Shown piece by piece: positions 902-42,709 of a stretch of DNA of 62,460 bases. The stretch is from Salinivirgaceae bacterium (GTDB taxonomy: Bacteria > Bacteroidota > Bacteroidia > Bacteroidales > SZUA-534), in the NCBI GenBank assembly GCA_024405635.1, contig JAKSOL010000016.1:1-62460 (forward strand), in the 5' to 3' direction. The translations under genes were made by a program, and so were the position numbers. The stretch's first letter is position 1. Each line of letters starts with the position of its first letter. The notes beneath the pieces were generated by a model. It saw only the letters and a program-made list of their open reading frames with translations, had not been told where the DNA came from and did not search any database.

Positions 902-1444
902 ATGCAAATCACCATAAAACCAATAGTACCAAACGACCAATTGTGGCAGCCTTTCATCGGTTTATACTGCTCTGCTTTTCCCGAAAATGAGCGCCGCGAC
1001 ATAAATCGCCTTGCCGAAATGACAAATTCTACAAATTTGATGCATGTAAATGCCATAATGCAAAACCAATTATTTGTAGGATTATTGGTTTATTGGACGT
1101 TTGACTCGTTCAACTATCTTGAACATTTTGCCATATTGCCCACCCATAGAGGTAAGGGCTTAGGCACAGCCGCTATTAAGGAACTAACTACCGAAAAACA
1201 GTTTTGGCTACTTGAAGTAGAACCCGACGAAACAGAACTTACACATCGCCGTATTCAGTTTTACAACAGAAATGGGTTTCAGGTACTTGACCGTACATAT
1301 ATACAACCAACTTATAACGGCAACCCTAACAACCAAGTTCCGCTATGGATAATGGGAAATAAACAAGCCCACGACGTTAGCAAAGAGATTGAAACAATAA
1401 AAAGCAATGTTTACGGCATACAATCAGCAATTGCTGTTTTGTAG
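902..1444 (+). CDS. GNAT family N-acetyltransferase
   Basis: YLEHFAILPTHRGKGLG, LLEVE and RRIQFYNRNGF motifs. Confidence 0.85.
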   Translation: MQITIKPIVPNDQLWQPFIGLYCSAFPENERRDINRLAEMTNSTNLMHVNAIMQNQLFVGLLVYWTFDSFNYLEHFAILPTHRGKGLGTAAIKELTTEKQFWLLEVEPDETELTHRRIQFYNRNGFQVLDRTYIQPTYNGNPNNQVPLWIMGNKQAHDVSKEIETIKSNVYGIQSAIAVL

Positions 1445-5168: not shown

Positions 5169-6521
5169 ATGAAAAAACACATTGTGGCCCTAATAATTGC
5201 CGCCACATCAGCAATAAGCACATCGGCACAAAACGACAGCATAATACTCGACAAGATTATGGCAGTAATTGGCCGCCAAGCAGTAATGTATAGCGACATT
5301 GAAAACCAATTTGCTCAAATGAAACAGCAAGGTTACTATGTAACCAATGATGCACGTTGCGAAATACTAGAGCAAGCCATGTACACCAAACTGCTAGTAC
5401 ACAAAGCATGGGTTGATACTGTTGAAGTATCGGATGCCGAAGTAAATAACGAACTTGAATACCGAATTAACTACTACGCTAACCAAATTGGCAGCATTGA
5501 AAAACTTGAAGAGTACTACGGCAAAAGCATAAGCGAAATTCGCGAAGAATATAGCGAGACCATTAGAGAGCAAAAAACCGCCGAGCGCATGCAACAAACC
5601 ATTGGAGCTGATGTTTCAGTTACACCACAAGATGTACGCAACTATTACAAATCGATACCAAGCGATAGCCTTCCAATTATAAACACCGAATTTGAACTAG
5701 AGCAACTTGCCATTTTTCCAAAAGTGCAAGAGTCTGAAGTTCTTCGCATAAAAGACCGTTTACGTGAATTTAAAAATCGAGTAGCAAACGGCGAGAGTTT
5801 TGCAACATTAGCTGTACTCTACTCCGAAGACCGAGGTTCGGCAATGCGAGGTGGCGAGCTTGGCTTTATGAGCCGCGGAGACTTAGTTGCCGAATTTTCA
5901 GCAGTAGCATTCAGCCTAGAACCAAACGAAGTTTCAAAGGTTGTAAAAACCGAATATGGATACCACATCATTCAAATGATTGAAAAGAAAGGCGAACGAA
6001 TGAACTGCCGCCACATTTTAATGAAACCACAAATAAGCTACACCGAGCGACAAAATACAATGAACTTGCTCGACTCAATCAAAAACCTTATTGACACAAA
6101 AGAAGTAACATTTAAGGAAGCTTGTTGGAAATTCTCTGACGACGAAGACACACGACTAAACGGTGGTGTTATGGTAAACAACGCAACCGGAACTTCACGT
6201 TTTGAGGCCGAACAACTCGACCCTAAAGTAGCAACCGCCATTCGCAACCTTGAAGTTGGGCAAGTATCAAAACCATTTGAAACCGAAGACGAACAAGGTC
6301 GCACAGTTTGCAAAATAGTGTTACTGCGCAACAAAACAGCACCACACAAAGCATCACTAGGCATTGACTACCAACGCTTACAAGACATGGCTTTGGCTAA
6401 AAAACGCGAGGACTATATGAAAGAATGGATTGAGCAAACCATTAACGAAACATACATTCGCATCGATCCCGAATACAAAAACTGCAACTTCAGCATCAAA
6501 GCTTGGAAATACGTTGAATAA
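5169..6521 (+). CDS. surA: SurA peptidyl-prolyl isomerase / outer-membrane protein chaperone
   Basis: Signal peptide from MKKHIVALII; N-domain LDKIMAVIG; FATLAVLYSED..SA.RGGELG and YGYHIIQ parvulin motifs. Confidence 0.85.
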   Translation: MKKHIVALIIAATSAISTSAQNDSIILDKIMAVIGRQAVMYSDIENQFAQMKQQGYYVTNDARCEILEQAMYTKLLVHKAWVDTVEVSDAEVNNELEYRINYYANQIGSIEKLEEYYGKSISEIREEYSETIREQKTAERMQQTIGADVSVTPQDVRNYYKSIPSDSLPIINTEFELEQLAIFPKVQESEVLRIKDRLREFKNRVANGESFATLAVLYSEDRGSAMRGGELGFMSRGDLVAEFSAVAFSLEPNEVSKVVKTEYGYHIIQMIEKKGERMNCRHILMKPQISYTERQNTMNLLDSIKNLIDTKEVTFKEACWKFSDDEDTRLNGGVMVNNATGTSRFEAEQLDPKVATAIRNLEVGQVSKPFETEDEQGRTVCKIVLLRNKTAPHKASLGIDYQRLQDMALAKKREDYMKEWIEQTINETYIRIDPEYKNCNFSIKAWKYVE

Positions 6522-31367: not shown

Positions 31368-34300
31368 CTATTGCACTGCAACGCGTTTTACCACTGTTCC
31401 ACATTTTACAATGTAAATACCAGCGTTTTGCATTGGTATTTCTGTAGAGACGCGATTAATCGCATCTGTACGGGTAACCAAACGGCCCATTACATCAAAT
31501 ACATAAATTGGAGCATCGACATTTTCAACTACAATACTTTGCCGTTTAGAATAGACTTTTCCATTCGTGCCAACAAAAGAAATAGCATCTGGTAGTTTAT
31601 TTTCATTATCCTTATCAAATATAGCAATTAGGCTTATGTTCTCTGAAACGGTAATTGTTATCGGATTTTCATGTGAACCATTATCCCAAGATTTAAACAA
31701 ATATCCATTATTAGGTATAGCTGACAATGTTACTTGTTCTCCATATCCATATTCCCCTGAACCTTCAACCATTCCCATTGCCTCACTGTTGCTCAATACT
31801 GATATTTCAAACATATCTGGTTCAAAATATGCAGTATAAACTTTTTCTTCAACCACATTTATAACACGTGGATTATCGGTAATTCCATCACTCCAGCGAA
31901 CAAAATGATACCCATGATTAGCAGTAGCTGATATGGCTGTTGATGAACCTGAATAAAACACGCCATCACCAAGAGCTGTGCCCATCATTTGATCTGTACT
32001 AACCGTATGAATGAAAAATTTAGGATATTGAGCAAAAAATGCTTGATAGGTTACATTATCTATTATAGATACAATTCGCGGATTACTTGTACTTCCATCG
32101 CTCCAATGGCTGAAATAACAGTTTTGTGCAGCATTAGCCGATATTGTAACTTGACTTAAATAATCGTAGGTGCCTGAACCAGAAACAGTACCCAATAGGC
32201 TATCGTTGCAATTTATTTTAATATCGTATTGGTTAATTGCAAATCGGGCTACAATAGATGTATCTGAGAGTAATGTTACTTGCCTTGATATCTCTGAATC
32301 TCCATCACTCCAATCAACAAAATGATAGCCATATTTTGGTTGCGCAGTTATCTCAATAATAGAACCGAAAAGGAATTGTCCATTGCCACTTACAGTTCCC
32401 ATTACATCATTGTTTGACATCAACTCAAGATTGTATGTATTAGCCTCAAAAATAGCAGTAAACACAGTATCGTTCATTGCGGCAACTCGCCTTATTTCAT
32501 CAGCTATGCCATCTGACCATTTTACAAAATGGTATCCTTTGTTTGGTGTTGCCCTAATTTGTGTTGTTGTAGAATAATCAAATAAACCTCCACCAGAAAC
32601 ATATCCCATAGAGTTGTCATTAGCTTCAACATCAATTTTATGTTTATCAATAGCAAATTCAGCATAGAATGATGTGTCTTGTGTAAGCAAGATAGTGCGA
32701 GGATTATCAGTTATTCCATCGTTCCATTGTACAAAATGATAATGAGGAATACTTTGAGCCGTAATTGCTAATTGTGATGCGTAATTATAACTGCCACTTC
32801 CTTGCACTGAACCAACTTGAACATTGCTACTATTTGCCGATACTTTAAATTGTGTGTAATCAAATTGCGCCACGTAATTTGATTCTTTTGTAACTGTAAA
32901 TGTTCGTGGATTGTCAGTATTTCCATCATTCCATTGAATGAATGAATAGCCATAATTTGGCGTAGCCGAAATTGTAGCATAAGTATTGTATAAGTAACTT
33001 CCTGCACCATCAACCACACCCTTTGCTGAGTTGCTACTACTAACATTTATGAAGTATGAATTAATTGCAAATTGAGCAGAAAAAGAAAGATCATCGTTTA
33101 CAGAAACATACCTTGGATTATCAGAATTCCCGTCACTCCATTGAGCAAAATGGTATCCTGTATTTGGAATTGCTTCTATGGCAATTTGCGATTTATAGTC
33201 ATAGTTTCCACTTCCTGTGGTATATCCTGCTGTTGGGTTGCTACTACTTACTGATAATGAAAAACAATCAATAGCAAACTCAGCAACATAGGTTGCGTCT
33301 TTTACAACAATTACTTCTCGTGGGTTATCTGTATTTCCGTCACTCCATTGCCTAAATACATAACCATAGTATGGAATTGCAGAAATAGTTGCTTTAGAGT
33401 TGTAGGTATAACTATTAGAACCACTAGTTGTGCCATACTCCAAATTGCTACTATTAACAGATATGGCATTGTTATTTATGGCAAATTGCGCTGTGTAAGT
33501 AGCATTTTGCACAACAACTACTGTTCTAGGATTATCGGTATTTCCATCGCTCCATTGTGTAAAATGGTAACCTGTATTTGCTGTTGCAGTTAGTTGTGTA
33601 GGCGTGTTATAATTGTAACTACCGCCACCCGAAGCTGTACCTATGGCAGGATTGCTACTCTCAACAGTAAGTCTAAAATAATCAATGGCAAACTCTGCAA
33701 TGTAATTTGCCTCTTTTGACACTGTTACAATACGCGGGTTGTCGGTATTTCCATCACTCCACTGCGTAAAGTGATATCCGTATGTGGCTGTTGCTGATAT
33801 TGTTATGCTACTATTGTAATTATACATACCGCTACCATAAGCACTTCCCATTGTGGCGTCGTTTGGTTGCACATTTATTGTGTAGCGGTTGGCTGCAAAT
33901 TGAGCAGTAAATGCCGAATCTTGAGTAACAGTTATAGTACGTGGATTGTTATTATTTGCATCATTCCATTGTACAAAATGGTATCCATAAGCAGCAGTAG
34001 CCGATATTAACATTTGTGTGTTGTAGTTGTATTTTCCGCCACCACTCACACTTCCCATTGTGGTATTAACACTGCTTGCCGATATAGCATAATCGTTTAC
34101 TGCGAAATATGCTTTATATGTCTCATTGGCATTCACCTTAATTGTTCTTGGATTTGACAAGTCCCCATCTTCCCAATGATCAAAATGATAACCATACGCA
34201 GGTGTTGCAGATATTGTTATTTGGTTTTGATAGTAGAAGATTCCTCCGCCCGACACTGTTCCCATTTCTGGATTGGCATTCATTACTGTAATGGTTGATA

Positions 34301-36788
34301 CATTAGAAACAAACTCAGCGGTAAACGAAGTGTCTTGAACAGCATACAAATAACGCGGATTATCGGTACTACCATCGCTCCATTTTAGGAAGTGGTAATT
34401 GCTATTTGCCACGGCATTCAATACTACTGGTTGCATGTAACCATACAAGCCACCACCCGACACCTTGCCTGCAAGCACATCGTTAACTAGTACCTCTACG
34501 CGACTATTGTTTGGCACAAACGTTGCAACAAACGATGTATCCTTGTTCATGCTCAATTGACGAGGATTACTCTCTATATCATCATTCCATTTTAGAAAAT
34601 GATAACCTTCGTTAGCTTTTGCATAAATTTTTGCATTGTGGTTACTACATGTTGGCGATTGAGTCACATAAACACTTCCCATTCCTTCGTCGTTTGTACT
34701 CAATGAAATATTGAATGGCGACGATTCCAACAAGTTGATAAAATTCTCCCAGTAATTTGTAACGTAGTAGCGATTTATGGTACCGCATGGCACATATACA
34801 GGCGTAAACAAATCGATATTGTTGAATGTTGAGCTATAAATGGTTGGTGGAATGTTTTTTTCAACTGTTATGTCCTCAATGTTAGTACATCCAGAAAAAG
34901 CACCACCTTCGATGCTCGCTACTGACGAGCCAAGTACTATGTGCTGCAATCCCGTACAACCACTATATGCACTTTCACCTATAGTTGTAACATTATTAGG
35001 AATACTCAATGTACCAGTAAGCGTTGTTACACCTGCAAAAGCACTACCACCAATAGTTTTTAACGATTGCGGCAAGTTAAACTCCGAAAGACGTTGACAC
35101 CCAACAAACGCACCATAGCCAATAGAATCAAGTCCTCCACTTGATTTTACCCAACGCAAACGATAACAATTATTAAAAGCATTTTTACCTATACTTTTAG
35201 TGCCATTACCCAAATCTGCATCGAGCAAACGCGAATTCCCAGCAAAAGCATTATCGCCTATTGTGGTGTTGGCATTGGCAATTCGCAATGAGAGTAACCA
35301 CTCGCAGTTTTGAAATGCGCTAATTCCAATGCTTGTAACACTTTGAGGGATAAGCAACGTGTCTGTTAGTTGTGTGCAATTAGAAAATGCGTTCTCACCT
35401 ATGCTTGTTACTGAATTACCTATAATCAATTCCGTTAAACTCTTTATTCCAGAGAACGGAGAATAGCCGCAAAAACTACTAGTTTCGTAACGCAAATTCC
35501 TACCAAGATAAACTTTCTCTAATGGGCAATCATAAAAAAGTCCTTTTCCATTATGACCATAACCATAAGGAACATAATCACTATAGCCCAACGTTAGAGT
35601 TTCGCTGCCATCTTCAAATATTAATTCCTTGAGACTAGTACAACCATTGAATACATAATTGTCAATGCTAGTTACTGAGTTTGGTATGGTTATAGAAGTT
35701 AACCCACTGCAACCATTGAACACAGACGAGCCTATGCTTGTTACTGAGTTTGGAATAGTTACAGAAGTAATGCCACTACAATCATAGAAGGCAGATGCAC
35801 AAATGCTAGTAACTTCATTACCGATATTTACGGTTGCTAATTTTTCTTTGTGAGAAAAATTTGTACCTATTGCATTTGTGTTGTATGTTAAAACCCCAAT
35901 GTTATTGCAACCAGAGAACGCAGACGAACCAATACTTGTAACTGAATTGCCAATGGTAACCAAGGTTAAGCCACTACAATTATAGAACGCATAATTGTTT
36001 ATTTGGGTAATAGCCTCTGGTACTATTAGTTCAGTAACTTCTTTTTCATCTACATATAAATGTTGGGCATAATAAAGTGGATTTGAATCATAATTACTAA
36101 AACTAATACCAAGCCATCCTTCAATTGACTCTGCATTTACTTTAGTCAAGCCACTGCAACCTTTGAACGCATAAGAGCCTATACTTGTAACACTACCGCT
36201 AATTGTTATTTCATATAAACTTTCTTTTCCATAAAATGGAGAGTAGCCATACATTTCTAAATCTGATTCTGGATATAGTATTGTTCTTCCGAGATATATT
36301 TTTTCTAATGGGCAATCATAGAAAAGACCTCTATGCCAATGATAGGTTGCTCCAGAAGAATAATAATCATAATCATTTCCATAGCCTAACGTTAATGTTT
36401 CGCTTCCATCTTCAAATGTTACTTCTTTTAGAGATGTACAACCATTAAATGCATAATTGTCAATACTAGTAATAGTATTTGGAATGGTTATCGAAGTTAA
36501 GCTACTGCAACCAAAGAACGCATGTTCTTTAATACTTGTAACAGAATATATTGTTCCATTGTACGTAACTACATTAGGAATTTTAACATTACCAATCGGT
36601 TTTGTGTAGCCTGAATAATATTCATATCCACTGCCTTTTTTATAAGGATATGTAACACTAACAGAACCATTCGAAGTGATGTTGTAATACAAAGTCTGCC
36701 CAGTACTACAAACTGCAGAAAAATCATAAGCAAGCAGATTAGTGGCAATAAATAGTATTATTGATATAGTCAATAGTGTACGCTTCAT
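31368..36788 (-). CDS. BspA-type leucine-rich-repeat surface protein with 15 InlB-B-like stalk repeats and T9SS C-terminal domain
   Basis: Signal peptide; TSIG..AF.GC..L LRRs; 15 'YxF..W.DG...NPR' repeats; tail VFDVMGR...GIYIVK...KRVAVQ. Confidence 0.92.
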   Translation of the reverse strand: MKRTLLTISIILFIATNLLAYDFSAVCSTGQTLYYNITSNGSVSVTYPYKKGSGYEYYSGYTKPIGNVKIPNVVTYNGTIYSVTSIKEHAFFGCSSLTSITIPNTITSIDNYAFNGCTSLKEVTFEDGSETLTLGYGNDYDYYSSGATYHWHRGLFYDCPLEKIYLGRTILYPESDLEMYGYSPFYGKESLYEITISGSVTSIGSYAFKGCSGLTKVNAESIEGWLGISFSNYDSNPLYYAQHLYVDEKEVTELIVPEAITQINNYAFYNCSGLTLVTIGNSVTSIGSSAFSGCNNIGVLTYNTNAIGTNFSHKEKLATVNIGNEVTSICASAFYDCSGITSVTIPNSVTSIGSSVFNGCSGLTSITIPNSVTSIDNYVFNGCTSLKELIFEDGSETLTLGYSDYVPYGYGHNGKGLFYDCPLEKVYLGRNLRYETSSFCGYSPFSGIKSLTELIIGNSVTSIGENAFSNCTQLTDTLLIPQSVTSIGISAFQNCEWLLSLRIANANTTIGDNAFAGNSRLLDADLGNGTKSIGKNAFNNCYRLRWVKSSGGLDSIGYGAFVGCQRLSEFNLPQSLKTIGGSAFAGVTTLTGTLSIPNNVTTIGESAYSGCTGLQHIVLGSSVASIEGGAFSGCTNIEDITVEKNIPPTIYSSTFNNIDLFTPVYVPCGTINRYYVTNYWENFINLLESSPFNISLSTNDEGMGSVYVTQSPTCSNHNAKIYAKANEGYHFLKWNDDIESNPRQLSMNKDTSFVATFVPNNSRVEVLVNDVLAGKVSGGGLYGYMQPVVLNAVANSNYHFLKWSDGSTDNPRYLYAVQDTSFTAEFVSNVSTITVMNANPEMGTVSGGGIFYYQNQITISATPAYGYHFDHWEDGDLSNPRTIKVNANETYKAYFAVNDYAISASSVNTTMGSVSGGGKYNYNTQMLISATAAYGYHFVQWNDANNNNPRTITVTQDSAFTAQFAANRYTINVQPNDATMGSAYGSGMYNYNSSITISATATYGYHFTQWSDGNTDNPRIVTVSKEANYIAEFAIDYFRLTVESSNPAIGTASGGGSYNYNTPTQLTATANTGYHFTQWSDGNTDNPRTVVVVQNATYTAQFAINNNAISVNSSNLEYGTTSGSNSYTYNSKATISAIPYYGYVFRQWSDGNTDNPREVIVVKDATYVAEFAIDCFSLSVSSSNPTAGYTTGSGNYDYKSQIAIEAIPNTGYHFAQWSDGNSDNPRYVSVNDDLSFSAQFAINSYFINVSSSNSAKGVVDGAGSYLYNTYATISATPNYGYSFIQWNDGNTDNPRTFTVTKESNYVAQFDYTQFKVSANSSNVQVGSVQGSGSYNYASQLAITAQSIPHYHFVQWNDGITDNPRTILLTQDTSFYAEFAIDKHKIDVEANDNSMGYVSGGGLFDYSTTTQIRATPNKGYHFVKWSDGIADEIRRVAAMNDTVFTAIFEANTYNLELMSNNDVMGTVSGNGQFLFGSIIEITAQPKYGYHFVDWSDGDSEISRQVTLLSDTSIVARFAINQYDIKINCNDSLLGTVSGSGTYDYLSQVTISANAAQNCYFSHWSDGSTSNPRIVSIIDNVTYQAFFAQYPKFFIHTVSTDQMMGTALGDGVFYSGSSTAISATANHGYHFVRWSDGITDNPRVINVVEEKVYTAYFEPDMFEISVLSNSEAMGMVEGSGEYGYGEQVTLSAIPNNGYLFKSWDNGSHENPITITVSENISLIAIFDKDNENKLPDAISFVGTNGKVYSKRQSIVVENVDAPIYVFDVMGRLVTRTDAINRVSTEIPMQNAGIYIVKCGTVVKRVAVQ

Positions 36789-36806
36789 ATAGTTTCTTTA
36801 TTTAAA

Positions 36807-37583
36807 CTAATAAATCAGAACGTTATCATTATATTGCTCTTTCACAATTTTTATAATTTCTTCCCTGTTTGAGTCTTTCATATTCTTACCTAGATATATT
36901 GCTTTTACACAATCTTTCGTCAAGTAGATATTTCTTTGAAAGCCTCTAGGATTGGACTTTATTATCCTAAATTCATTTTCCCATGCATATTCTTTAAGCT
37001 TTGTGAAGTACTTTTTATTATACTCGCCCTTAAGATCATCATAACGCCCATCATAAACAGGCAATTCATTAACGTAATTCACCCATGAGCTAGCCCCTTT
37101 GATAGTTTCAAAAAGTTTATTTTGGTCATATTCAATACAAAAGCCGCTATGCATTGCACCATGTTTTTCCCAGCATTTTTCATTTCTCGGGCTACCAGAC
37201 AAACTCAATACTCCAATTTTTTGGATTCTTTCCTCATTAAGTTCTTCCCATACTTTGTCAAATCCAATTGGGTCATTCTGCATTTTTATAAAATGTTTAT
37301 TTGCCCAGTCTTTAGCATAGCTAGTATGATTTTTTCTATTATACGAGAAATAGAATTTGTTGTATTCTTGTAAATGGTATAAATAGAAATCATAGCATGT
37401 TTTAGGTATATACTCCTTATACTTACAATCTTGCTTATCTTCAAATGTATCAGGAGATGCCAAATACACATAATTCTCACGAAATGCTTCTATATGCTTA
37501 GAATTTTCTGCATCTCGATATTTATACACAAAACTTGGGGAATGCTTGCTATTGGTATTGATGTAACATTGACTATTACTCAT
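36807..37583 (-). CDS. DUF2971 family protein
   Basis: YKYR, LASPDTFED..DC, W..HG..HSGFCIEY, FTK...YAWENEFR, IYLG. Confidence 0.8.
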   Translation of the reverse strand: MSNSQCYINTNSKHSPSFVYKYRDAENSKHIEAFRENYVYLASPDTFEDKQDCKYKEYIPKTCYDFYLYHLQEYNKFYFSYNRKNHTSYAKDWANKHFIKMQNDPIGFDKVWEELNEERIQKIGVLSLSGSPRNEKCWEKHGAMHSGFCIEYDQNKLFETIKGASSWVNYVNELPVYDGRYDDLKGEYNKKYFTKLKEYAWENEFRIIKSNPRGFQRNIYLTKDCVKAIYLGKNMKDSNREEIIKIVKEQYNDNVLIY

Positions 37584-37595
37584 TACGTAGTTTTT

Positions 37596-38864
37596 TTATT
37601 CAGTTACAAAAACAACTTCTTCGCCATATTCGGTACCAATGCTATTGGTTGCATAAGCACGTACATAGTATGTAGTACCGCTAAGTAAACCAGAGAGTTG
37701 GCTTAAAAATGGGCCAGTGCCAATACCATCGGCAGTATGCGGTGCGTTGGCAATAGTTGGATTTGGAGTGGTGCTATAGCAAACGCCACGAGCAGTGCAA
37801 GCAAAACCGCCATCGCTATCAACACTACCACCCAACGAGGCTGTAGTTGTTGTTACATTTATAGCCTTGGCTGTTGCTACTACAGGCAAACCATTGGTGG
37901 TGGTAAAGGTTATTTGTTGGCCATACACCGTACCAACAGAATTTGTGGCATAAGCACGCAAATAGTAAGTTGTGTTAGCCTCAAGTCCCGTAACAGTGGC
38001 AACAAAACTGCCCGTTCCTTTTCCATTGTTAGTATGACTATTGAGTATGGTTGGCTGCATGGCTGTGCTCCAGCAAACACCATAAGCAGTTACCGAATAA
38101 CCACCATCGGTAGTAACATTACCGCCAGTTGTTGCCTCGGTAGCTTTAATGTCTTTAATTGTTGTTGTGATTATGGTTGGTAATCCATCGGTAGTGGTAA
38201 ATTGCAGTTGTTCGCCATAGGCTGTACCAACTCCGTTGGTTGCGTATGCTCGCACATAATAGGTTGTGTTTATCTTCAAATTAAAAAGGAGACTATTAAA
38301 CGAGCCTGCCCCATTACCATCGACAGAATGAGAGTCGTCAATTGTTGGATACTGCTGTGTACTCCAACATACCCCCCGTTGCTTAATTGTAGATTGCCCA
38401 TTGTCAGTAACATTGCCACCACACATGGCGGTGTTTGCTTTTACATCGGTTATTTCATATGTTGCTATTGTTGGCAATGTTGGGCCTTGCACTTCAATCA
38501 CTCCCAATTGGTAACTATAACTGCCCAACTGCATTTCTTTAATGCTAACTTGTCGGCCAACATAAAGTGAGTCAGCTTCTATCTGCAAGTAGTAATCATT
38601 TTTTATGTCTTCTGGTGTAACATCAATTCCGAAATTACCATTGGCATCGCTAACAATCACAATAGGCGACAATTCGCCATTGGTTTTGCACACTCGTAAG
38701 CCCTCAATTGGTTTACTGTTCTGGTTATTTACCAATGTCCCTTCACAAATGGTGTTTTCGTATATTCCTTCCTCCTCAAGACTTTTTATGCAAGACGAGA
38801 ACAATGATAAAATCAGAAATGACAACAATATTTTACGTAAAGTTCTTAGTATGCAAGTAGCCAT
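37596..38864 (-). CDS. lipoprotein with three tandem fibronectin-III-like repeats
   Basis: FSSC lipobox; three 'GG.V..DG....RGVC.ST...PTI...TYYVRAYATN..GT.YG' repeats. Confidence 0.82.
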   Translation of the reverse strand: MATCILRTLRKILLSFLILSLFSSCIKSLEEEGIYENTICEGTLVNNQNSKPIEGLRVCKTNGELSPIVIVSDANGNFGIDVTPEDIKNDYYLQIEADSLYVGRQVSIKEMQLGSYSYQLGVIEVQGPTLPTIATYEITDVKANTAMCGGNVTDNGQSTIKQRGVCWSTQQYPTIDDSHSVDGNGAGSFNSLLFNLKINTTYYVRAYATNGVGTAYGEQLQFTTTDGLPTIITTTIKDIKATEATTGGNVTTDGGYSVTAYGVCWSTAMQPTILNSHTNNGKGTGSFVATVTGLEANTTYYLRAYATNSVGTVYGQQITFTTTNGLPVVATAKAINVTTTTASLGGSVDSDGGFACTARGVCYSTTPNPTIANAPHTADGIGTGPFLSQLSGLLSGTTYYVRAYATNSIGTEYGEEVVFVTE

Positions 38865-38870
38865 AGTGCA

Positions 38871-39692
38871 TTAAAATTTATATGTAAGCCCCAAACCAAT
38901 AGCGGGTTTTGTATCGGGCAAAACGGTAGGATAAAGAGCTATGCCATCGGTATAGTTAGGCAACGAAAAATAGGCTCGATAAAGGTTAAATGCATAAAGT
39001 GTAGCGGCCGCTCCCCATGCAACAAAACTCGTGTTACGCAACTTGTTATAACTATTACGGGCATCAGTAAAATCAGTATAACCTACACCATGTTTTTTCA
39101 TAGTATCTAATTTGTCCTGACTCATTACATAACAAGCGGCTCCAGTTCCAACAAATGCCAACTCGCCAACAAAAGTTAATACACCTTCAGTAAAATGACG
39201 TTTTCCCCATTGACCTAATCCTGGAACGAAAATAGATTTTACCAAGGCTGTTGTATTGTTGAACTCTGCAGCCGTATTGCAATCTTTAAATGGAGCCCAT
39301 ACAACACTTATGTTACCACGCACTGCCACTTGGCAAAGTACATACACTCTATATCGGCCATCGGCAAGCCGTTCAGAATACTCACACACCTTATTTATAG
39401 GTATATTAAATGTACTTGAAATAACACTATAGTCTGTACCTCGCTGAACAGCCTTATTTATTTCTGCTGCATTAACAGGTTGCCCCAAACTGTTGCCTGT
39501 AGTTTGAAAAATACGGGCAACAGCTTGAGTCCTAGCTTCGTTTTCTGTTGATGCAATGGCGCTTTCTTTCTCATATCGGTATGTTGAGTTTGCTGCCTTT
39601 GGCATTTTATAAATCCATGTAGGCTTATTCTGTGCGCTAACACATAACGAAAAAAGAAAGAAGGTCAATATCAGTAATAACTGTTTTCTCAT
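38871..39692 (-). CDS. exported protein, LPP20-like N-domain with DUF5683-like membrane C-domain
   Basis: Signal peptide, KP.WI...P, SIFVPGLGQW, ends GLTYKF. Confidence 0.6.
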   Translation of the reverse strand: MRKQLLLILTFFLFSLCVSAQNKPTWIYKMPKAANSTYRYEKESAIASTENEARTQAVARIFQTTGNSLGQPVNAAEINKAVQRGTDYSVISSTFNIPINKVCEYSERLADGRYRVYVLCQVAVRGNISVVWAPFKDCNTAAEFNNTTALVKSIFVPGLGQWGKRHFTEGVLTFVGELAFVGTGAACYVMSQDKLDTMKKHGVGYTDFTDARNSYNKLRNTSFVAWGAAATLYAFNLYRAYFSLPNYTDGIALYPTVLPDTKPAIGLGLTYKF

Positions 39693-39694
39693 AA

Positions 39695-40234
39695 CTATTT
39701 AAAATACTCAGAGTATTTTTTCTCAAATTGTTCACGATCGTAAACAACTTTCAGCTTTTCATTTTCAGACAAGCCTTTCTCAATTTCTGAAGCCAATTTC
39801 TTTTTTGAGATTTGAATAGCTATGTGCGACTCGTAATTTCCAGCTTCTGTTCTATACATTTTCTCGCAAATTTGTTCAGCGTCGTTTAAAGTACGATTAA
39901 CTGCCATTTTAAACTCACCTTCTATAATTCGCGAGATATCCTCTTGCTGGGCATTACCTGCCAATAGTTTATTATAGTCAGTTGTTATACCTTTTACTGA
40001 GCCTCCAAGTTTTTGGTTAATCATACTTTTAGCAGCATTCAAAGCTTCTGTACGGGCATTTTGCTGATTAACATTTGTAGATGTTCCAGATGAACGGAAA
40101 TAGTTTGAATCGTCAAAAACTAGACAAGGAATATCCAAATCTACTCCTCTTCCAGAAACAATTTGTCTTTGTGTTCCACATGATACTAATAATATTGCCA
40201 CTACAACGGCAGAAAAAACACGTAAAATTCTCAT
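39695..40234 (-). CDS. LPP20-like lipoprotein
   Basis: LVSC lipobox; YFRSSG.S.....AR..A...AK pattern. Confidence 0.65.
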   Translation of the reverse strand: MRILRVFSAVVVAILLVSCGTQRQIVSGRGVDLDIPCLVFDDSNYFRSSGTSTNVNQQNARTEALNAAKSMINQKLGGSVKGITTDYNKLLAGNAQQEDISRIIEGEFKMAVNRTLNDAEQICEKMYRTEAGNYESHIAIQISKKKLASEIEKGLSENEKLKVVYDREQFEKKYSEYFK

Positions 40235-40353
40235 AATCAATTACATTTTATAATTAAACTTTTAACATTAATCAAGAGTAATACTTGCATATCATTATCA
40301 TTCGCTCGCCAATTCCCCCAAGCAAGCAGTAAAAAAAGTTAACAAAAAGGCAT

Positions 40354-40650
40354 AAAAAAAACGTGGGAATCTGTACTTGTTACTCGTCCCACATTTCGAG
40401 GCTCTCGCATTGCCCACCAAGCTAGAACGAGCAACGCAGAAGCCCACGCCGAATATGTAAACCACAAAATGCCACGTAGCATCCGTAGGAATACACCAAT
40501 CCACGCAGACATCTACCGTTGCCTTGTCTTTAGCTTGATTTTGAAATTTGCGAGATTCCGAAATGCTAAGAACAAAGCGTCAAGTAAACGCCTTTATTAT
40601 GTCCTGCCCCACCCCTAGCGTTTGCCTTGCGACAACATTCGGCGTGAGAC
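40354..40650 (-). ncRNA. candidate structured cis-regulatory leader RNA of the surface-protein operon
   Basis: Long hairpin 40362-40448 followed by U8; hairpin 40524-40575; three 7-bp complementarities between the two. Confidence 0.55.
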
Positions 40651-40655
40651 AATGG

Positions 40656-40663
40656 CAAATATA
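40656..40663 (-). promoter_or_regulatory. -7 promoter element (TATATTTG)
   Basis: CAAATATA on the + strand, at the start of the leader. Confidence 0.65.
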
Positions 40664-40777
40664 TGAATAATGATTAATGTTTAGTGATTAGAGAATAATA
40701 GGTTTTAAGTTGTACGTAGTACGTTTTAAGTTGTACGATTCAACAAATCAACGATTCAACTGTTCAACATTCTACGT

Positions 40778-40868
40778 TTCGCCCTGAAAGGGCAGTAACA
40801 CTCAGACCATGGCAACGCCCAGCGGCATGGCAAACAATCACAACTTGCGCCCTGTAAGGGCAACAGCG
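40778..40868 (+). repeat. REP-like doublet (GCCCTGAAAGGGC ... GCCCTGTAAGGGC)
   Basis: Palindromes at 40781-40793 and 40849-40861 with internal CTCAG.CCATGGCAACG. Confidence 0.8.
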
Positions 40869-40991
40869 TTAATGTTTTAATGTTTAATGATTAGTGATTA
40901 ATAGGTTTTAAGTTCTTCGTTTTACCATTCTACAACCAACGGCCAATAGCTAAAAGCCAGAAGTACGATTCAACGCATCAACAGCAGAACC

Positions 40992-41048
40992 GTGCCTTCG
41001 ACAAACTCAGGCACCGCGCGTACTGGTGGCTGAGCCTGTCGAAGCCAC
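40992..41048. repeat. inverted pair of CTTCGACA..CTCAG palindromes
   Basis: GTGCCTTCGACAAACTCAGGCAC and GGTGGCTGAGCCTGTCGAAGCCAC; third copy at 42933-42956. Confidence 0.8.
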
Positions 41049-41085
41049 ATCGCATCAACGAATCAACAAATCAACAATACATAAG

Positions 41086-41175
41086 GCTACTGCCCTTTCA
41101 GGGCGCTGCCTTTCCTTTCTCATTATTCCCAAGACGTTGCCATTGGGCTGAGAGATTATGCCCTTTCAGGGCGAG
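41086..41175 (-). repeat. REP-like doublet, inverted copy of 40778-40868
   Basis: GCCCTTTCAGGGC at 41092-41104 and 41160-41172; reverse complement has CTCAGCCCAATGGCAACG. Confidence 0.8.
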
Positions 41176-41299
41176 ATGTAAAGTTATAATATGCTCATTA
41201 TCTTTACATTAATCTTTTATCATTAATCGTTAATCATTGTTATTCATATCAACGATTCAACATTCTAACGGCCAATAGCTAACAGCCAGTAGCCTCCCA

Positions 41300-42709
41300 T
41301 TAATCATTGACAAACAAATCGTCCATAGTAACCTCGGCGGCGGCAATGGCCGAATGTTTTCCTGGCACCACTCCAAATGTTGTTACAAAAGTGGTTACCA
41401 ACGACTTACGACACGATGTTGATTCTTTAAAAATGGCCAAACGCATTCGCAGTTTCTGCTCATACTCTTTCGATATGACGTACGGTGAATCTGAAAACTT
41501 AAATTCACACAAATTAATAACCCTATCGGCTCTATCAATAAGCATATCTATCTGAGTTTCAGCATTTCGCCATGCACTTATCGATGTAGAAACCCCAAGT
41601 ATGCCAAGTTTTTTCTTAATCTGATTAGAATGCGTCATTCCAACAATCTCAAAAGCCATTCCTTGCCAAGACACAACAGCTTGAGATGTGCAGTTATGAG
41701 TCCAAAAAGCATTGTCCAACGTTCGTTTATCGTGCAAAAACCTAAAATAGAACAATGTATAAAAATCAGTTAATCTGTATGTTACATTATTTTTCTTGCA
41801 TCCAAACTTGACATACACCGTAATAAAATCACACTTTTCAAGATTGTCAAGAATCTTAGTCATATTACCACCCGAAAGCCCTGTTGCCTCAATAATTTCT
41901 TGGCGCGACATTCCGTCATGCTTCTGAGCAAGAATACTAACAACATTAATATATCGGTCGGCATTTGCAAACAAAGCGCTATAGAGTTCAGAAAACTCAC
42001 ACGACAATGGCGCATTCTTTTCAAAGAACAAATAATCGATATTTTGAGCAAGACTTTGCGTTGTGTTAATTAAACTATAGTAGTACGGAACGCCGCCAAG
42101 CACCATATACGCTTGCACGATTTGCATTCGGTCCCAATAGCAATTTTTTGACTCAAGATATTTCTCAACCTCGCCAAGCGTAAACGGCCGCAAATATATT
42201 TGGCATGTAATGCGATTGTGCATACCACCCTTATTTTCAAGCAGTTTGTCGGCCATCCATGATGTAGCTGAACCACAAGCAACAAGCACAATGTCGTCTC
42301 TTGTTGCTACCCACGAATTCCAAAAATATTCTAATGCGCTCACAAACTGAGATTTATGGGTATCAATCCATGGCATCTCATCAATAAAAATCACCTTTCG
42401 TCCAGTTGGCAACGATTCAAGATAATCGCGGAGGCAAGCAAACGCATCGTCCCAATTTTTCAATTTAGGTGCAAATGTCGATTTGCTATAGCGTTTCAGC
42501 TGATCGGCAAAGCTAGCCAACTGCACATCTTGCGACTCGTTATGACGGCCAACAAAATAAAATGCATAATCATCGTTGAAAAACTTGCGAATAAGAAAGG
42601 TCTTTCCCACCCTTCGGCGACCATAAACAATAACAAACTCTGATTTTTCAGAGTTAACACACCGACGCAATTGTTCTATTTCTTTTTCTCTACCAATAAG
42701 CTCTACCAT
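41300..42709 (-). CDS. AAA family ATPase (archaeal-ATPase type) with wHTH and C-terminal PD-(D/E)xK-like domain
   Basis: LIGREKE, YGRRRVGKT, FIDEMPW, CGSA, GGVPYY, QIDMLI...INLCEFKF. Confidence 0.88.
   Translation of the reverse strand: MVELIGREKEIEQLRRCVNSEKSEFVIVYGRRRVGKTFLIRKFFNDDYAFYFVGRHNESQDVQLASFADQLKRYSKSTFAPKLKNWDDAFACLRDYLESLPTGRKVIFIDEMPWIDTHKSQFVSALEYFWNSWVATRDDIVLVACGSATSWMADKLLENKGGMHNRITCQIYLRPFTLGEVEKYLESKNCYWDRMQIVQAYMVLGGVPYYYSLINTTQSLAQNIDYLFFEKNAPLSCEFSELYSALFANADRYINVVSILAQKHDGMSRQEIIEATGLSGGNMTKILDNLEKCDFITVYVKFGCKKNNVTYRLTDFYTLFYFRFLHDKRTLDNAFWTHNCTSQAVVSWQGMAFEIVGMTHSNQIKKKLGILGVSTSISAWRNAETQIDMLIDRADRVINLCEFKFSDSPYVISKEYEQKLRMRLAIFKESTSCRKSLVTTFVTTFGVVPGKHSAIAAAEVTMDDLFVND

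Follow-up and report, generated by a model that had tools for sequence, protein, structure and literature searches.

The locus considered here raises the question of what a strongly structured stretch of minus-strand sequence, set between a promoter box and a run of co-oriented genes, does for the bacterium that carries it. The window, by which we mean the whole 62,460-nt stretch of Salinivirgaceae DNA that was analysed (contig JAKSOL010000016.1), had been described in an earlier note as holding a leader with a kissing-loop or terminator-switch architecture ahead of a 9-kb operon. We find that the flagged region belongs to a family of Bacteroidales 5' leader RNAs that is widespread and uncatalogued, each RNA being about 300 nt long from its putative start to the U-tract. 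Judging from the sequences of this copy and its relatives, we lean towards reading it as a cis-acting transcription-attenuation switch of the antiterminator/terminator type.

The layout of the locus agrees with the claim of a structured minus-strand RNA that follows a promoter; the box, TATATTTG, is of the Bacteroidetes type and is present at 40656-40663, and a transcription start can be provisionally placed from it at about 40650. The 5'-terminal hairpin P1 varies in sequence among relatives, and on folding its segment lies more than 3 kcal/mol below the shuffled mean in 101 of 115 copies. Beyond P1, the segment S1 pairs with S2 in a local hairpin (P2) and is also complementary to a segment S3 at the U-tract. 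Across the family, the R/Y position of S1:S2 counts 69 GC, 53 AU, 20 GU and 4 AC, and that of S1:S3 61 GC, 47 AU, 29 GU and 13 AC. The run of eight U expected after hairpin B is found at 40354-40361. The coordinates of these and the other features discussed below are collected in the table.

Features of the leader RNA and of the genes behind it, in window coordinates (paired strands separated by a slash)
Feature	Coordinates	Strand	Basis or remark
-7 promoter box TATATTTG, TAnnTTTG type	40656-40663	(-)	sequence read
P1, 5'-terminal hairpin, sequence variable across family	40606-40650	(-)	centroid fold
S1 AAAGGCGU	40588-40595	(-)	forms local hairpin P2 with S2
S2 ACGCUUU	40574-40580	(-)	partner of S1 in P2 (P2 overall 40574-40595)
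State I long hairpin	40391-40566	(-)	folds and covariation
P3	40559-65/40392-98	(-)	7/7 pairs in window
P4	40549-55/40403-09	(-)	7/7 pairs in window
P5	40531-37/40418-24	(-)	7/7 pairs in window
P6	40517-22/40431-36	(-)	coordinates mapped by eye
P7	40504-10/40442-48	(-)	3 G-U in 7 pairs; mapped by eye
Variable apical domain of State I hairpin	40449-40503	(-)	
Hairpin A	40565-75/40524-34 (span 40524-40575)	(-)	10/11 standard pairs
Hairpin B, putative terminator of State II	40362-40448	(-)	
Hairpin B basal helix CGUGGG:CCCACG	40443-48/40362-67	(-)	6/6 pairs
Hairpin B middle helix	40437-40/40370-73	(-)	4/4 pairs
Hairpin B upper helix GUUGCUCGUUCU:GGGACGAGUAAC	40424-35/40379-90	(-)	
Small hairpin T	40387-93/40362-68 (span 40362-40393)	(-)	7/7 pairs
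U-tract U8, also 3' part of S3	40354-40361	(-)	sequence read
Post-terminator hairpin, stem GCUUGC/GCGAGC, loop UUGGGGGAAUUG	40304-40327	(-)	
Five co-oriented ORFs	31368-40234	(-)	first ATG at 40234
ORF 1	39695-40234	(-)	no Pfam family; lipoprotein-like N-terminus
ORF 2	38871-39692	(-)	no Pfam family
ORF 3	37596-38864	(-)	fn3
ORF 4	36807-37583	(-)	no Pfam family
ORF 5	31368-36788	(-)	BspA-type LRR_5 plus Flg_new_2, 1806 aa

The leader as a whole (40235-40655, minus strand) has a minimum free energy of -140.6 kcal/mol against -110.4 +/- 5.3 kcal/mol for 100 dinucleotide shuffles (z -5.72), and none of the 100 shuffles folds as well. Single-sequence minimum-free-energy folds of the window copy shift with the ends chosen, and we did not rely on them. 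The description of the region as richer in GC than other spacers holds for the RNA proper (40354-40650), which has 47.5% GC against 41.0% in the upstream spacer and 39.0% in the window; it does not carry over to the whole interval flagged in the earlier note, which reaches only 41.8%. Sequencing runs that share sampled words with the window touch the locus in two places. One metatranscriptome run (0.10 of the words shared) covers only 39808-39987, inside the first ORF, and a second run of unrecorded type (0.22 shared) has one contig over 40428-40741.

The genome to which the window belongs (2.66 Mb in 36 contigs) holds four paralogous copies of the element, on contigs C8 (the window), C16, C27 and C34, which align over about 330 nt with 75% mean column identity. 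BLAST placed all further copies in a single sister genus (7 of 8 genomes among relatives, 15 of 16 in the family sample). The apparent confinement to two genera, a consequence of the low sensitivity of BLAST, was overturned by a scan with a motif of 43-47 nt taken from the alignment, applied to one genome per species. This motif recovers 31 of the first 38 copies, and its matches in the own genome are the four copies only. The scan returned at least 120 stretches, all 120 of which match the family profile with E-values from 4e-13 to 3e-62. In all, 151 distinct copies were gathered from Bacteroidales genomes and two Phocaeicola plasmids, 148 of them less than 90% identical to each other. Titles among the matches listed include Bacteroides, Phocaeicola, Prevotella, Segatella copri, Paraprevotella, Parabacteroides, Alistipes and Xylanibacter, together with bins named at the family level as Muribaculaceae and Paludibacteraceae. 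Full-length copies also occur in bins labelled Oribacterium, Pseudoflavonifractor, Clostridiaceae, Firmicutes and Oscillospiraceae (loci L079, L083, L084, L099, L113 and L115); these Firmicutes-type bins are probably mis-binned Bacteroidales contigs rather than cases of real carriage.

Within the order the distribution is patchy. An even sample of 401 genomes in 236 genera has the exact motif in 20 genomes and 14 genera, and the reversed control in none. In the window's own taxonomic family it is found only in the window's genus and one other, where 14 of 16 genomes carry it; two one-mismatch matches elsewhere in that family are unlike the RNA family, and the control pattern also gave one. Copies per genome number 1 to 5 by exact motif in five named genomes, and one related genome has up to 10 motif matches when one mismatch is allowed. 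Named carriers include Phocaeicola dorei and P. vulgatus, both by plasmid copies, as well as Segatella copri and Paraprevotella clara, whose strain YIT 11840 has 5 motif copies; the two Phocaeicola plasmids, each of about 95 kb, hold one copy apiece ahead of a hypothetical gene. Two faecal phage contigs, both unannotated, hold partial matches. Copies are often found about 1 kb or less from the end of a contig (C27:177-265, C16:46164-46280 and several contigs of relatives), and the C16 and C27 copies are nearly identical along with their downstream sequence, so the element and its cargo families seem to break assemblies. Some copies stand in pairs on the same strand, at 2751 and 3292 of contig C167 in genome G046 (0.5 kb apart) and at 5570 and 9467 of contig C373 in genome G047 (3.9 kb), which indicates that cassettes can stand in series.

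The conserved core can fold in two ways. In the first, State I, helices P3 to P7 make up one long hairpin. The earlier note had seen three ordered 7-bp blocks of complementarity, and their pairs are borne out in full, 7/7 in each; the kissing-loop option that it had offered is corrected here, the blocks being helices P3, P4 and P5 of a single extended hairpin that is thermodynamically preferred. P4 alone could plausibly persist as a loop-loop contact, its strands lying in the loops of hairpins A and B. RNAalifold on 38 copies yields 48 pairs, 25 of them with compensatory changes. The alignment of all 151 copies was made with MAFFT without taking structure into account, and gappy columns were removed; on it, the gathering of homologs and the look for covariation that had been proposed give a clear result. 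At 50 consensus pairs, 91.0% of cells are paired, compared with 37-51% when partners are slid, and double changes occur at 29 consensus pairs compared with 12-21 for slid partners. In P3, all four Watson-Crick pair types are seen at nearly every position, and in the outer two pairs of P4, C-G and U-A alternate in about equal numbers. G-U cells far outnumber A.C cells in this alignment (1157 and 276 of 7375), so the structure belongs to the minus (RNA) strand. The apical part varies in length while its flanking helices covary, and the conservation of loop sequence exceeds what pairing requires. For most copies the energy of State I equals or comes close to the minimum free energy, the median difference being 0. 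As an alternative content of the core, a conserved small ORF was considered and rejected, the longest closed ATG ORF having a median length of only 26 aa.

The second fold, State II, consists of hairpins A and B, whose pairings stand as they had been drawn: 10 of 11 pairs in A, and 6/6, 4/4 and 9/9 in the basal, middle and upper parts of B (the last for 40379-87/40427-35). An A.C mismatch on the plus strand in hairpin B is, as had been pointed out, a G-U pair on the transcribed strand. Upper B can be extended to GUUGCUCGUUCU with GGGACGAGUAAC, the former being the 3' strand of P6 with the internal loop that follows it and the latter including the 5' half of stem T. In 127 of 151 copies this helix is 9 bp or longer; its mean length is 10.7, compared with 8.8 +/- 0.15 after partners have been exchanged between copies, and its pairing is kept through two-sided changes (e.g. 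GCUUAUCCU with GGGAUAAGC). The best helix of hairpin A averages 7.15 across the family against 5.86 +/- 0.12 for swapped partners. Basal B is paired in 98-100% of copies per position, and G-U pairs are frequent in P7. Hairpins A and B, exceeding their swap controls, are thus both conserved as an alternative fold. Stem T, which in State I is the sole stem ahead of the U-tract, is paired at 72-95% per position; its energy alone is -10.4 kcal/mol in the window (family median -7.7), and that of the hairpin B segment is -40.6 kcal/mol (family median -34.5). In 134 of 151 copies, the 9 nt that follow CCCACG include at least 6 U. For the whole RNA, the family medians are -89.5 kcal/mol in State I and -77.9 kcal/mol in State II; the former is favoured in 138 of 151 copies, with a median gap of 10 kcal/mol, in nearest-neighbour terms that leave loop-loop contacts uncounted.

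These two folds exclude each other. P6/P7 and hairpin B compete for the strand 40424-40448, and both of these pairings are conserved. Hairpin B takes the 3' strands of P6 and P7, and the 3' strands of P5, P4 and P3 make up its loop, where a long helix cannot hold them as well; hairpin A takes part of the 5' strands of both P3 and P5 and so cannot coexist with either. To calibrate the individual helices, we compared each helix in real partners with the same helix in partners exchanged among copies, over about 80 segment pairs and with z-scores uncorrected for phylogeny. The State I helices score highest (P3 40.8, P5 29.3, P4 13.3), and those of State II also stand out (upper B 13.8, hairpin A 11.4, basal B 7.1), as do S1:S3 (9.8), S1:S2 (7.9) and T (6.0). 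All but two of the remaining pairs fall between -5.2 and +3.8; these two, columns 36-50/236-250 (z 8.0) and 18-32/88-102 (z 7.9), also exceed the null range and lie outside the helices proposed here. The terminator-switch architecture suspected in the earlier note is therefore present in the sense that alternative helices share sequence with the terminator stem.

The genomic surroundings of the copies bear on what is read through or terminated. A common layout consists of a TAnnTTTG box, the variable 5' hairpin, the conserved core, the U-tract, often a hairpin with a GGGA loop, and a co-oriented ORF. Of 136 copies, 116 have an exact TAnnTTTG no more than 130 nt upstream of the core, the median distance being 47 nt. 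At 110 of 115 loci, the longest ORF with a start no more than 350 nt downstream is co-oriented with the RNA and begins a median of 62 nt after it; among the other five loci, four have an opposite ORF (at least two of these with a co-oriented ORF as well) and one has none. A TAnnTTTG sequence occurs in 2 of the 110 spacers between RNA and ORF. Of 89 spacers at least 25 nt long, 56 contain a hairpin with a GGG(G)A loop, against a mean of 6.9 and a maximum of 12 in shuffled spacers, and the conservation of a hairpin beyond the U-tract implies that transcripts extending past that point are of importance. The constant polarity and spacing, the box-free spacers and this hairpin together argue that the leader is read into the genes behind it.

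Those genes are of many kinds. The five co-oriented ORFs behind the window copy may form one operon, given their short gaps and common strand, so that the placement of the leader ahead of a 9-kb operon would hold for the window; across the family the leader is not peculiar to that operon and precedes very diverse genes. Among 27 downstream ORFs scanned against Pfam, LRR_5 was found in ten, Flg_new or Flg_new_2 in two, a weak RHS_repeat in two, a methyltransferase or DNA methylase in two and DUF2971 in two; a helicase-like AAA, UDG, Pkinase and Peptidase_S74 occurred once each, and five ORFs had no match. A further set of downstream ORFs, judged by eye, is as mixed as these. Upstream neighbours vary by locus, 18 being co-oriented and 15 divergent among the 33 compared, and no conserved neighbouring gene in this comparison hints at a protein partner. 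In the window the upstream gene encodes an ATPase_2/HTH protein by Pfam.

Several features of individual loci were observed alongside. The window's first ORF (39695-40234) resembles, by eye, the ORF behind the Bacteroides bouchesdurhonensis copy. Small HTH-like ORFs of 77 and 72 aa, recognized by eye, directly follow the leader at L020:311-541(-) and L088:860-1075(+); they are similar to each other and belong to different lineages, and the one at L020 has no Pfam match. At locus L066 of Prevotella ihumii, an abiF motif (RF03085) scores 47.8 bits against a gathering score of 37 at 1157-1193 (+), about 225 nt from the leader copy, which reaches to about 932, and on the opposite strand; the ORF after this leader copy has a P-loop N-terminus by eye. 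In the window, the rest of the 1.06-kb intergenic region (40664-41299) is a mosaic of short dispersed repeats, in which tandem TCAACGAWTCAAC-like units occur along with GCCCTGAAAGGGC hairpins and, at 40992-41048, an inverted repeat of 24 nt; pieces of it recur on at least 10 other contigs of the genome. A sub-threshold match to Acido-Lenti-1 at 41128-41173 (+) (22.2 bits, gathering score 37, E 0.024) falls on a CCCTTTCAGGGC hairpin there and is probably due to chance.

We propose that the balance between the two states would set the share of polymerases that read into the downstream genes. State I would tie up the strand 40424-40448, leaving only the weak hairpin T before the U-tract, and read-through would follow; in State II, hairpin A would form together with hairpin B, whose long stem right before the U-tract would act as a strong intrinsic terminator. 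P7, rich in wobble pairs and weak, may be displaceable by the terminator strand, and some factor could shift the balance, be it a small ligand, a protein, a second RNA or a cue of a kinetic or physical kind. Because hairpin A is able to form ahead of the synthesis of any 3' strand, the choice of fold may be kinetic. Two exclusive, conserved folds that share the terminator strand point to an antiterminator/terminator attenuator design. In keeping with such a design, a hairpin (B or T) with a U-tract stands upstream of and co-oriented with an ORF, and a conserved alternative structure shares nucleotides of the terminator stem. As in riboswitches, the architecture is conserved and covaries; in contrast to typical riboswitches, the 27 Pfam-scanned ORFs and the set judged by eye do not share a one-metabolite function. 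This diversity of cargo argues against a pathway-specific metabolite and fits a global signal or no signal. Two properties complicate the proposal: State I is preferred in 138 of 151 copies, so State II may be rare unless it is favoured, and some hairpin precedes the U-tract in both states, so the ON state would not be clean.

The same results can be set against other accounts of the element. A stand-alone sRNA of about 300 nt ending at the U-tract, acting in trans or in an RNA-protein particle, with incidental read-through downstream, would also have its own promoter box, hairpin and U-tract, would explain the loop conservation beyond pairing needs, and would be multi-copy in the manner of the Bacteroides FopS family (as described in the passages of PMC11697453 drawn on here). 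We nevertheless consider it unlikely, since such an RNA does not call for nearly fixed ORF orientation and spacing (110/115, median 62 nt), for a promoter box in as few as 2 of 110 spacers or for a conserved hairpin past the U-tract, and has no need of conserved alternative helices involving the terminator. A constitutive portable cassette, in which a promoter and a stable 5' structure or insulator travel with mobile cargo and the alternative helices are by-products of a quasi-repeat, draws on the patchy distribution (20 of 401 genomes, 14 of 236 genera), the Phocaeicola plasmid copies, the diverse and accessory-looking cargo, the varying upstream neighbours (18 co-oriented and 15 divergent of 33) and the frequency of copies at contig ends. 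The State II helices are, however, maintained by compensatory changes, unexpected for by-products, and a strong internal terminator would defeat the purpose of the cassette, which makes this account quite improbable.

Processive antitermination of the put or EAR kind, by which polymerase would be let past terminators over long operons, had been raised in the earlier note as well. A promoter-proximal structured RNA ahead of a long operon is what it predicts, yet many copies precede short single genes, the element has its own terminator, Rfam gave no corresponding match either in the window at E up to 10 or at gathering score in ten copies, and no result speaks specifically for it; we regard it as very improbable. 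We give even less credence to a DNA-level element, that is, a miniature-transposon palindrome or recombination site with no role as RNA. The long imperfect inverted repeat, its multiple copies and the adjoining mosaic of dispersed repeats at 40664-41299 would be natural for one. Against it stand the strand asymmetry of mismatches (1157 G-U against 276 A.C), the fixed polarity of promoter box and U-tract relative to the ORF, and the variation in apical length while the flanking helices covary.

The transcription-attenuation reading, then, concerns an RNA that appears in no catalogue we consulted. The earlier note had been unable to name a family, and this agrees with the absence of any Rfam 15 match to the element at gathering score; across the whole window, only two tRNAs pass that score. 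Over 39900-41500 with E up to 10, Rfam gave seven weak matches, none of them meaningful, and the only one inside the element on the strand of the RNA was mir-33 (15.4 bits against a gathering score of 50). Ten other copies gave only the abiF match beside one of them. The 6S RNA of Bacteroidales (RF01693, Bacteroidales-1), expected as a single housekeeping copy, has no match in the window, and the present element is multi-copy, with four in the genome. Among ANTAR, BglG/RAT, T-box and PyrR leaders, those with Rfam models are unmatched at 39900-41500. Literature searches brought up no description of the RNA family, although supplementary sRNA tables may list an unnamed copy, and 15-nt motif strings are absent from the literature text searched. 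Such an RNA is not mentioned in the portions considered of a preprint on the Segatella copri RNA landscape, of the B. thetaiotaomicron transcriptome papers PMC7366714 and PMC10994844 and of a 50-genome ncRNA survey (PMC11109978). Identity with the FopS/GibS RNAs was rejected on length: in the passages of PMC11697453 drawn on, these are multicopy Bacteroides sRNAs, and FopS RNAs are about 65-70 nt long and act in trans on susC mRNAs, compared with about 300 nt here.

By analogy with known systems, the proposed mechanism resembles TRAP-type or ON-riboswitch attenuation, and the genomic habit resembles that of GEMM riboswitches or JUMPstart/ops leaders. The adenine riboswitches of the pbuE class are ON-type transcriptional riboswitches. 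As in that class, a conserved sensor fold here would hold one strand of a longer, stronger terminator, and a weak sensor helix (here the wobble-rich P7) would be displaceable; unlike that class, the element has no gene association pointing to a ligand, matches no Rfam riboswitch model, and has a core of about 250 nt with a variable apical domain. The c-di-GMP-I (GEMM) riboswitches recur many times within a genome, preceding surface and lifestyle genes of various kinds. They share with the present family the habit of a multi-copy leader ahead of variable surface and accessory genes, but the structure here differs and has no Rfam match. JUMPstart/ops leaders are read by RfaH, and ops itself is a short stretch of DNA that forms no RNA structure. 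Like them, the element is a common leader that marks long, horizontally acquired surface-structure operons; unlike ops, it is a covarying RNA fold with a terminator, and the JUMPstart model is unmatched.

In the Bacillus subtilis trp leader, the terminator forms when TRAP blocks the antiterminator (PMC3064811). As there, the default antiterminator structure overlaps the sequence of an intrinsic terminator; in contrast to it, the RNA here is much larger, and many copies per genome precede unrelated genes rather than those of one pathway. From the passages of PMC11697453 cited above, the FopS/GibS RNAs are likewise multicopy RNAs of Bacteroidales with canonical TAnnTTTG-type promoters, and FopS differs from the present RNA, which has about 300 nt and lies directly before the gene that it presumably controls.

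A wider possibility, which we put forward only tentatively, is that the leader serves as a regulon-wide gate, whereby one signal sets the expression of dozens of unrelated accessory genes, moving among genomes as a portable promoter-leader cassette. If so, the genes under this control would include BspA-type surface proteins, candidate defence genes and lipoproteins; switch and cargo would move together between species and onto plasmids, and the signal might come from a second messenger, from an RNA-binding protein or from a physical cue. In the gut and oral microbiota Bacteroidales are dominant, and few cis-regulatory RNAs are known in this order. The family described here has more than 150 distinct members, with covariation that is clear even without specialised software, and the bistable design, which combines a weak terminator hairpin with a strong one, lends itself to direct tests in the named carriers. 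Should transcription indeed be gated in this way, the leader would provide these bacteria with a common control layer for variable surface and accessory functions, and could provide a portable regulatory part for engineering Bacteroidales.
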